NCBI GenBank assembly: GCA_963701665.1
Contig: OY969622.1
Coordinates: 832,001 to 896,000 of the forward strand
DNA: 64,000 nt
Direction of reading: 5' to 3'
Source of the DNA: Candidatus Babeliales bacterium
GTDB taxonomy: Bacteria; Babelota; Babeliae; Babelales; JANWKD01
Made by a program: the position numbers. This document shows positions 18,001-21,000 of the stretch, in pieces; the stretch's first letter is position 1; each line of letters starts with the position of its first letter.

Positions 18001-21000
18001 TTTCAATTTTTTTTATGTGTTCACGTGCATAGGTTTCAAGTGCGTTTGAATGCTCCATACCTTTGAAAGTAAATTGTTTGTTCATTGCTTAGCTCCTCAC
18101 CGAAGGGTGTCATCCCGACCCTACTTCGCTCTGCGAGCTCCGAAGGGGTTGTGGCGAACCTATCCTCCGAAGTCTTGATGCGGGAGGATCCAGAACTTTA
18201 ATACATTCCCTATTTTTAGGAACTAATTTTATTATCTGGCTTCTACTTCGTTAAAACTTCGTAGAACAAGTTGCTTACCCCTTCGAAGCTCTTAGCGAAG
18301 TAGGGTCACAATGACAACTGGTCTTTTATATTTATTTAGAAAAATATAATTCTCTTTTTTACATACTCACCTGGTAGCGTAGCATGCACGAGCAAAATTC
18401 TCTAGAGAAGAGGGTAACGTTAATCTGTTTTACGAGGGATAAAGGTCAATGGGACACCAACTAAATCATACTGTCCACGCATAACGTTCTCAAAGAATGC
18501 CAATTGGCTATCGCCAAACCATTTCGGTTCGTTCACTAATAATAAAAATGTCAGCGGCGCTTTTCTAATTTGTTTTACTTTGCGCACCAACAAACGATGT
18601 GAGCTTATATAAAGTGGGGTTTTCTCAAGAGCATTTTTAAATAATTCAGTCAGCTCTTGATTGGAAAATGATTGATTCGCGCGCTCCCATATTTTTTGAA
18701 CGAGTGGCAAAATCTTGCCACAATTTTTCTTCGTTTTGCAGGAAATAGTTAATACCGGAATCTTTTTTAAAAGATGTTTATATTTTTCACAATCGTAGGC
18801 AAAGTCGGCACGTTGCTGATCGGTAACTAGATCTTCTTTATTGACAAGCAATGCGAGTGATTTTTGATGCTCAAAAGCATAAAATGCTAATTTAAGTTCT
18901 TGATCGCTCAAATGCCCTTCAGTTCCCTCGATCATGAGTAAAATGATATCCGCATTATCGACCGCGCGAAAAGAAGATTTCACCATCAGTGTTTCAAGCA
19001 GTTCAGTAACCCCTCGTTTTCTGCGAATACCAGGCGTATCAGTTATTTGAATAGTCTCTTTATAAAAGCGTAAACGCTCGGAGATAGCTTCGCGCGTTGT
19101 TCCGGCGTGCGCATCAACAATCGAGCGTTCTTCTTCAAGAAGGAAATTCATGAGCGATGATTTGCCAACGTTCGGTTTGCCAATCAGTGCAATTGAAAAT
19201 GCGGGCGCTTCTTCCTCAAAATTCGATTCTTTTGTCGCAACTTTTTTTACAATTTCATCAAGAAGATCTCCTGACCCAGTACCATGCTGCGCAGAAAGTT
19301 CAACGGCGACATTATAGCCTAATTTTTCAAACTCGTAGCTTTTTTCCTGTGCTTCATGTGAATCAATTTTATTAATGGCAAGAATCACATCTTTATCATG
19401 TTTGCGCAGAAAATTATTAATGTCCCTATCTTCAGGTAGCAGCCCAACTTTTCCATCGCACACAAACACAATAAGGTCAGCCTTTTCTACAAGAGAAAGG
19501 GCAACCATCCTGACTTTTTCTGTTAACGAATCTTGTGATTTTTTAAAACTAATACCACCCGAATCGACCAGTTCAAATGCAATTCCTTTCCATGTTATGA
19601 CATCAGAAAGAAAATCGCGGGTGACACCGGCAAAATCCAAAGTAAGGCTTTTTACGTTGACTGATAAACGATTGAATAAGGTAGATTTCCCAACATTGGC
19701 TCTACCAACGATAACAACTTTTGGCAATTTACTCATGAGAACTTTCTTTTACTTCGTGAACAGTACCCGGAAAATGCTGCAAAATAAGCGTTGCATTTTT
19801 CCATACTGATGCATCTGAAACATCAAATGATGATGTTTGTCTTGGCGCTATCTTGCGCGCACTAGAAGGATACACAGGTGTTGGTGTAGTTCGCGGTTGC
19901 GGTATTTGTTTAATAATTTTCTGTTCAGGTTGAGGACTCGGCGCTGCACTTTTTTGTTCAGATTGCATTGCTATAAAAACTGGTTTGCAGGTGACCTGAT
20001 TGCCAAATATTTTTTTGAGCAATGGCTGCCACGAAGCGTGCGTATTTTCTAACCACTCATTAAAAAAAATAAAATCTTTTGAAAAAGTTAAGGTAAGAAC
20101 GTGCGTAGTTTCATCTAATGCGAGTGTCTGCATCTGTGTAAATACTGAACTTAATAAAGGATCATTCAATTGCGCTATAGCATCTAAAAACTTTTGCCAA
20201 CGCTCGTTTGCAGCAACTGGCGCACGCGCTTCCTCATCCTCCTTAAGCATTACAGATTCTGGAACACTCGTTACGGAAGCTGTTTGTCGCGCAGGAGGTT
20301 CAGATTGCGGCTCACTTGGCGATATTGCCACACTTTTTCGATCTTGAAAACGAAGTAGCATAAGTTCTAGAAAAATATATTGATTGCGCACTTTTGAAAA
20401 GAGCAGTTCATTTTCATAGAGCATGGTTAACAACTGATGTATTTTTTCACGTGAATGCTGTTCAAAGATCTTTTTTAGTGATTCTTTGTAATCATTAAAA
20501 AAGGGCAATGCAAGTTCATAATGCGCTAATACTGTTGCGTGAGCAATCATGCACAGTGCTTGCCAAACTACATCAGCGGTAATGTTTTTTGCGGCAACAT
20601 CTTTCAACAGTCTCAACATAGTTTTTATAGATCCAGTCAAAACCGCTTCAAAAAGTGCAAAAACGAGTGCATCTTCTAAATGCCCGACAACCGTGCTCAC
20701 ACTTGAACGCGTGACAACAGGGACTGCAAACCTCGCTTGCTCTAAAAGATTTAATGCATCGCGCACGGATCCTTGTGATTCTTGCGCAATAAGCAGTAAT
20801 CCATCTTTTTCATACGCAATATGTTCCGTTTTACAAATATGTTCAAGATAATCTGCAAGCACTGCCGTAGGAACTGCTTTGAAAAATAATTGGAAACTGC
20901 GTGATTTCACGGTCTCAATAATTTTTTGAATTTCTGTCGTTGCTAAAATAAAAAGGACTGAAGCAGGCGGATCTTCCAAGACTTTTAAAAAAGCATTGAA

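Follow-up and report, generated by a model that had tools for sequence, protein, structure and literature searches.

A canonical Der and the absence of Obg and Era in the bacterial phylum Dependentiae

Introduction

The GTPases Obg and Era occur in nearly all bacteria and are mostly essential. A der locus in the genome of a Candidatus Babeliales bacterium (phylum Dependentiae, TM6) raises the question whether a bacterial lineage can mature its ribosomes when Der is its one dedicated assembly GTPase. The genome-wide survey's note on this locus had proposed that Obg and Era were lost throughout the lineage while Der was kept.

Both absences have already been published. In their core-orthologue comparison of seven genomes, the relevant passage of Yeoh et al. 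(2016, Mol Biol Evol 33:915) describes the OBG GTPase marker as unidentified in every TM6 genome, probably owing to a lineage-wide absence, and a passage of Gruffaz and Smirnov (2023, Front Mol Biosci 10:1263433) lists Era as lost in Dependentiae, Chlamydia, and most CPR. Each of these passages reports the same loss as our data for one factor, in one sentence and from few genomes; neither joins the two losses, and EngB, RsgA, RbgA, RimM, RimP, RsfS, and RelA/SpoT go unmentioned in them. According to the gene-content passages of a broader survey (MBE 2025;42:msaf288; PMC12641178), obgE and der occur in >99% of non-CPR genomes, and >99% of symbiotic/parasitic bacteria carry obgE; the two obgE figures agree with those cited in the note. 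In the same passages, the CPR class ABY1 lacks obgE and possesses der, era is mostly missing in CPR, and der and obgE show complementary distributions there. The genome list of that survey includes six TM6 assemblies, placed in the non-CPR set without a symbiotic/parasitic flag, and its main text names Dependentiae three times, including a tree legend, but in none of the gene-content passages cited here. The term "Obg" was not found in the Babela paper, as had been stated before. In the literature on Dependentiae/TM6, we found no paper that unites the losses as a Der-only system, and none that lists EngB, RsgA, RbgA, RimM, RimP, RsfS, or RelA/SpoT for the phylum.

The der gene and its genomic context

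The analyzed window is a stretch of 64,000 nucleotides (C1:832001-896000) of a genome of 1,337,192 bases, which was assembled into one contig with an estimated completeness of 93.56% and a contamination of 2%. Within this window, der (engA), the gene of a tandem-G-domain ribosome biogenesis GTPase, is located at 18420..19736 on the reverse strand as an ORF of 438 aa. The ORF scored 405.5 bits against the NCBIfam equivalog model TIGR03594 (GTPase_EngA/Der; cut-off 306.7 bits), covering model positions 1-429 of 432. Pfam searches detected MMR_HSR1 in two stretches (166.2 bits) and a C-terminal KH_dom-like domain (PF14714) at residues 358-434 (43.8 bits, cut-off 27.3), and a motif scan located G1 (residue 11) and G4 (residue 122) in the first G domain, and G1 (residue 186), G3 (residue 233), and G4 (residue 299) in the second. 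An end-to-end alignment with the solved EngA of B. subtilis (2hjg, chain 2hjg_A) spanned residues 5-435 with 245.9 bits, and other solved Der proteins also aligned with the ORF. Judged from these matches, the protein is a canonical Der/EngA without any additional domain, for which GTP hydrolysis and binding to the pre-50S particle are predicted. It is a full-length orthologue of the E. coli EngA and shares with it the two G domains as well as the KH-like domain.

The start of der shares eight bases with the stop of dnaX (19729..21432, reverse strand), which encodes the tau/gamma subunit of DNA polymerase III (567 aa; Pfam DNA_pol3_delta2, DNAX_ATPase_lid, and DNA_pol3_gamma3). On the other side of der lies a gene on the same strand for a ribosome hibernation factor of the hpf/raiA type (17750..18085; 111 aa; PF02482 Ribosomal_S30AE, 44.1 bits, cut-off 23.7). 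We compared ten related Dependentiae loci by tblastn, which belong to families f2, f15, f17, and f21 and were chosen solely as the best G-domain matches to the Era model. Full-length Der matches with 44-54% identity were obtained from these loci; dnaX was directly upstream of der in all ten of them, and hpf followed downstream on the same strand in seven. This gene order indicates that dnaX, der, and hpf form a conserved putative operon, the description of which extends the earlier reports. Further genes in this part of the window include two TLC ATP/ADP translocase genes, situated 3-6 kb from der, and four small ORFs at 14432-16321, 2-4 kb downstream of der, for which Pfam gave no match.

Search for Obg and Era in the genome

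The Obg fold (PF01018) had no match in the six-frame translation of the genome even at E ≤ 10, while all ten bacterial controls were positive; the absence of this fold reported by the genome-wide survey's note was thus reproduced. Matches to the full-length Obg model TIGR02729 comprised the G domain alone (model positions 150-328, none earlier than 150) and were located in the frames of YchF (72.8 bits), HflX, Der (twice), MnmE, and an ABC-F protein. Likewise, the Era model TIGR00436 was matched at positions 1-174 only. These matches fell into Der (C1:850654-851721) and MnmE (C1:60634-61065), where G-domain matches had been noted before, and also into HflX, IF-2, YchF, and TypA. The KH_2 domain (PF07650) exceeded its cut-off in the uS3 frame alone; three weak matches corresponded to frames identified by Pfam as RNase Y, PNPase, and NusA, and a fifth match contained internal stop codons.

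To account for every G domain of this genome, we inspected all 19 MMR_HSR1 matches at E ≤ 1. The seven above the cut-off belonged to MnmE, Der (two matches), YchF, HflX, IF-2, and TypA. NCBIfam models named all 15 distinct further frames, among them MnmE, YchF, HflX, and IF-2, each above its own cut-off; the others were Ffh, the N-terminal portions of TypA and EF-G, and various ABC and AAA ATPases. A scan for G1, G3, and G4 motifs in ORFs of at least 120 aa added only Ffh, FtsY, LepA, and EF-G to the MMR_HSR1 set, besides a single false positive, which lay in an ORF of 854 aa. A frame of 277 aa that matched MMR_HSR1 weakly was considered as a diverged Era and rejected, because it encodes the N-terminal half of TypA, with the C-terminal half following in a separate ORF. 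No orphan G domain is left in this genome after assignment of Der, MnmE, HflX, YchF, IF-2, LepA, TypA, EF-G, EF-Tu, Ffh, and FtsY; this check was complete for the genome studied and was made by frame size in five more genomes (see below). As far as sequence profiles tell, Der is the sole GTPase of this genome that is dedicated to assembly.

The 3' end of the 16S rRNA is canonical, with GGATCACCTCCTT following helix 45. The idea that the loss of Era was paired with the loss of its binding site on the 16S rRNA could therefore be ruled out, and since this site is unaltered, a change in that RNA element did not enable the loss.

Several essential genes of the assembly have broken frames: EF-G is split into at least four pieces and EF-Tu into at least two, uS3 is short, and TypA as well as Lon, which lies inside the window, are each distributed over two ORFs. 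This pattern suggests residual indel errors and an unreliability of gene-level calls in this assembly. The use of six-frame domain searches and of 260 other genomes offsets the broken frames, so that the absences are independent of ORF calls.

Distribution of Obg and Era in Dependentiae

The census was extended by six-frame profile searches to 261 Dependentiae species genomes from 21 families and 145 genera, of which 189 were of high quality (≥90% complete, ≤5% contamination). A single genome, which belongs to the high-quality set (1/261 and 1/189, respectively), was positive for PF01018. Its only match (G189:C144:2-238) lies within the first 240 bases of a contig of merely 1738 bases, and the GC content of this contig is 73-77% over the first 200 bases and 26-45% elsewhere. 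This GC jump shows the contig end to be a chimera with foreign, GC-rich DNA, and we rejected the match as evidence of a surviving Obg.

For Era, none of the 261 genomes reached the cut-off of NF000908 (237 bits), the top score being 115 bits, while ten of ten controls scored above it. G-domain matches to this model were present in all 261 genomes. The best 150 of them that were listed (1188 weaker ones exist besides) lay in frames of 407-500 aa and ended at or before model position 217. KH_2 was found in 258 of the 261 genomes, and the best 150 matches listed (541 others exist besides) were located in frames of 123-262 aa, the size of uS3. In addition, we examined the MMR_HSR1 matches of the five genomes richest in Era-model G-domain matches (four with seven each and one with six). 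Judged by frame size alone, no Era-sized frame (~300 aa) occurred among the MMR_HSR1 matches of these five genomes; the frames had the sizes of Der, MnmE, YchF, HflX, IF-2, and long GTPases. The presence of Der throughout the phylum is read from the G-domain matches in 261/261 genomes, with Der-length frames for all of the best 150 listed, from cross-matches in frames of 435-470 aa in 21/21 genomes of a smaller set (see below), and from the ten loci recovered by tblastn (10/10). These results indicate, at the level of profile matches, that the whole phylum Dependentiae is truly without Obg and Era. The lineage-wide loss of both GTPases alongside a retained Der, first proposed from 21 genomes, thus holds on 261 species genomes.

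Other ribosome assembly factors

Additional factors were searched for in a set of 21 genomes (18 of high quality) consisting of the genome studied here and 20 relatives from 17 families. RimM, RimP, and RsfS were each detected in 0/21 genomes. EngB (YihA; TIGR03598) was above its cut-off in 0/21 and also in 0/261 genomes. At E ≤ 1e-22, one of the 261 genomes and none of the 189 high-quality genomes had an EngB match; this partial match (114.5 bits) in genome G021 lies within 370 bases of the end of a contig of 3.8 kb in an 82%-complete bin, and its GC content is 55-61% as compared to 33-48% in the sequence before it. The fragment is probably foreign, the case being less clear-cut than that of the Obg chimera. 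RsgA (TIGR00157, E ≤ 1e-18) was found in 0/261 genomes, and the RsgA_GTPase domain yielded only cross-matches of ≤33 bits per single match in the 21 genomes. RbgA (TIGR03596) was above the cut-off in 0/21 genomes, and its 21 matches were cross-matches inside the Der frames of 435-470 aa. According to these profile searches, the loss is more extensive than the genome-wide survey's note had claimed, as EngB, RsgA, and RbgA are gone too. That note had also listed RimM, RimP, RsfS, and TruB as missing. All four are indeed absent from the genome studied here, and the first three from the entire 21-genome set; for TruB, a lineage-wide absence did not stand, as this factor is missing in the studied genome and in four others of its family and present in 9/21 genomes. 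The TruB loss is patchy and no trait of the phylum.

The RelA_SpoT domain of (p)ppGpp synthetases was found in none of six genomes, which were the genome studied here and five single-contig genomes from five other families.

Among the retained factors are RbfA (C1:954105-954476) and YbeY (C1:1169156-1169608), and the genome also keeps LepA, KsgA/RsmA, HflX, YchF, MnmE, TypA, and one clear copy of a DEAD-box helicase. The reported retention of Der, HflX, YchF, LepA, RbfA, and YbeY was thereby borne out by profile matches for every one of them. The proposal that maturation runs on "Der and RbfA alone" proved too narrow, given the presence of YbeY, KsgA/RsmA, the DEAD-box helicase, HflX, YchF, LepA, and TypA.

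Possible explanations for the missing factors

Could the missing genes have been overlooked? Assembly artefacts are an extremely improbable cause. It is true that essential genes are frameshifted in the genome studied here and that many of the relatives are multi-contig bins, but 189 genomes reach a completeness of 90% or more and many consist of a single contig, frameshifts are tolerated by six-frame domain searches, and identical searches recovered Der-type G domains in 261/261 and uS3-type KH_2 domains in 258/261 genomes. We also regard it as very unlikely that Obg and Era are present in forms too divergent, fused, or split to be recognized by profiles. Obg and Era G domains rank among the best conserved protein modules, ten of ten control bacteria were detected, and in the studied genome every G domain belonged either to a named protein above its family cut-off or to a translation-factor fragment, with the full-length Obg and Era models matching G-domain positions alone inside named proteins. 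These observations outweigh the facts that Dependentiae proteins are often divergent, that the loose first-look filter of the profile searches could miss a strongly diverged Obg fold or KH domain, and that 1188 weaker matches to the Era model and 541 weaker KH_2 matches lie beyond those inspected.

A replacement of the lost functions deserves more consideration and still appears unlikely. The steps of YihA and ObgE could have been taken over by Der, HflX, or YchF, and that of Era by RbfA, YbeY, and KsgA, or a non-homologous factor specific to the lineage could serve instead. Such a scenario would be compatible with the position of der in a conserved operon with dnaX (10/10 related loci) and hpf (7/10), with the retention of YchF and HflX well above their cut-offs as, together with Der, the last members of the Obg/HflX superfamily, with the four small Pfam-less ORFs 2-4 kb downstream of der (14432-16321), and with the complementary der/obgE pattern that the cited passage reports for CPR (MBE 2025;42:msaf288). 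However, Der has the usual length and domain composition in the studied genome, the Der frames among the best 150 Era-model matches listed across the phylum measure 407-500 aa, and no candidate replacement was identified.

The explanation that we strongly favor, and consider very probable, is a phylum with a normal Der and without Obg, Era, EngB/YihA, RsgA, RbgA, RimM, RimP, and RsfS, which probably goes back to one ancestral loss and to tolerance of its consequences. The searches directly document which factors are present or absent and that Der is intact. From this distribution we infer a single loss, most likely before the 21 sampled families diverged.

Left to themselves, rRNA and proteins can complete the process that assembly factors accelerate and police, and (p)ppGpp is bound by Obg, Era, RsgA, and RbgA. 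The missing factors would be understood as kinetic chaperones and checkpoints rather than catalysts. Owing to the lack of a (p)ppGpp synthetase domain in the sampled genomes and the ATP/ADP translocases near der, we propose that the whole alarmone-coupled checkpoint layer has been lost, with Der, RbfA, YbeY, KsgA, the DEAD-box helicase, and the translational GTPases carrying the remaining work. In an obligate intracellular energy parasite with ATP/ADP translocases and no (p)ppGpp, whose growth in its buffered host is probably slow, checkpoints that sense alarmones may be dispensable and a slower, less policed assembly may be tolerated. Loss of the alarmone alone is no explanation, since most RelA-less reduced symbionts keep Obg (>99% according to the passage in MBE 2025;42:msaf288), and this weakens the proposed mechanism.

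Under the favored explanation, 30S maturation would be accomplished by RbfA, YbeY, and KsgA in the absence of Era, RsgA, RimM, and RimP, and HPF, encoded right behind der, would silence ribosomes in place of RsfS. For the 50S subunit of E. coli, a passage in a recent preprint (bioRxiv 10.64898/2026.02.15.706057) gives the order of placeholders as YihA, EngA, and ObgE. Unlike in E. coli, the first and the last of these placeholders (YihA/EngB and ObgE) as well as RsfS are missing here, and 50S assembly would have to proceed with EngA, the middle one, alone.

Chlamydia keeps Obg. Dependentiae resemble Chlamydia in being obligate intracellular bacteria, and both are named together as lacking Era in the passage by Gruffaz and Smirnov (2023). 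A close counterpart is the CPR class ABY1, which according to the passage in MBE 2025;42:msaf288 shares with Dependentiae the absence of obgE and the presence of der, that is, a Der-only solution for the 50S subunit. Unlike ABY1, Dependentiae are a non-CPR phylum.

Implications

The value of these results lies in consolidation, as the core facts were in the literature already, and the Der-only statement and the extra absences are an extension and no discovery. What they add to the printed record is the scale of 261 genomes, the additional absent factors, the connection with a lack of (p)ppGpp synthesis, and the dnaX-der-hpf context. Only tentatively can these elements be combined into the picture of a non-CPR phylum that matures its ribosomes with Der as the only assembly GTPase and without (p)ppGpp, and in which the arrangement of dnaX, der, and hpf may couple the processes concerned. 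The same joint picture, possible yet doubtful as a whole, includes the absence of YihA, ObgE, Era, RsgA, RbgA, RsfS, RimM, and RimP. The operon itself may couple replication, 50S assembly, and hibernation.

If the Der-only reading is true, Dependentiae would have converged independently on the solution of CPR class ABY1, and the placeholder steps of YihA and ObgE would have passed to Der or to an unrecognized factor. This would also weaken the case that the assembly factor repertoire of CPR reflects early divergence rather than reduction. A whole phylum without Obg and Era shows that far fewer checkpoints can suffice for building bacterial ribosomes in vivo, and the members of Dependentiae that are cultivable in amoebae offer a test bed for this.

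Gene order around der

The order dnaX-der-hpf, which occupies positions 17750-21432 of the window on the minus strand, was kept across four families when compared by tblastn with ten related Der loci from other Dependentiae genomes (L017-L026). The dnaX gene lay upstream of der at all ten loci and hpf downstream at seven of them, and dnaX and der overlap by 8 bases in the genome studied here.

Isolated Obg-fold and EngB-like matches

Across 261 Dependentiae species genomes, the Obg fold and an EngB-like protein were each matched only once, in both cases at the end of a contig with a GC content that jumps above that of the AT-rich rest. 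The Obg-fold match (L016, G189:C144:1-1738; GC 73-77%) is a chimeric join or a contaminant contig end in the bin, and the EngB-like match (L040, G021:C30:1919-3772; GC 55-61%) probably has the same origin.

Frame breaks and other genes in the window

In the genome under study (G000), EF-G is broken over at least four ORFs and EF-Tu over at least two, the uS3 frame is shortened to 165 aa, and TypA appears as two ORFs of 277 and 285 aa. These frame-broken essential genes are located outside the window (C1:454532-457592, C1:461344-461841, and C1:167680-169480). Within it, a frame break divides Lon (26383-28812) into two ORFs of 459 and 333 aa. The split essential genes are most likely leftover indel errors of the assembly rather than pseudogenes.

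Next to rpsB (22133-22999), the minus strand carries two adjoining genes for TLC-family ATP/ADP translocases (23134-24537 and 24658-26004), a hallmark of energy parasitism. A 678-aa protein encoded at 31896-33932 (minus strand) contains a PLA2_B lysophospholipase catalytic domain (100.9 bits), which is a eukaryote-type phospholipase domain; a role as a host-interaction enzyme is possible. Two adjoining giant ORFs on the plus strand (1923-6587 and 6577-11346; 1554 and 1589 aa) showed no significant Pfam stretch but just scattered matches of low-complexity type, and may encode paralogous secreted or coiled-coil proteins. Four small plus-strand ORFs in a row (136, 171, 127, and 130 aa; 14432-16321), flanked by dsbD and a gene for a YhcG-type PDDEXK nuclease, had no Pfam match at E ≤ 1e-8.

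TruB and (p)ppGpp synthesis

TruB, the tRNA pseudouridine-55 synthase, was found in 9 of the 21 related genomes, and those lacking it included the genome studied here and four others of its family. Its loss is patchy and more recent. The RelA_SpoT (p)ppGpp synthetase domain was not found in any of the six genomes searched, which represent six families (our genome, G005, G061, G120, G122, and G182). The alarmone of the stringent response is probably not produced in the phylum Dependentiae.
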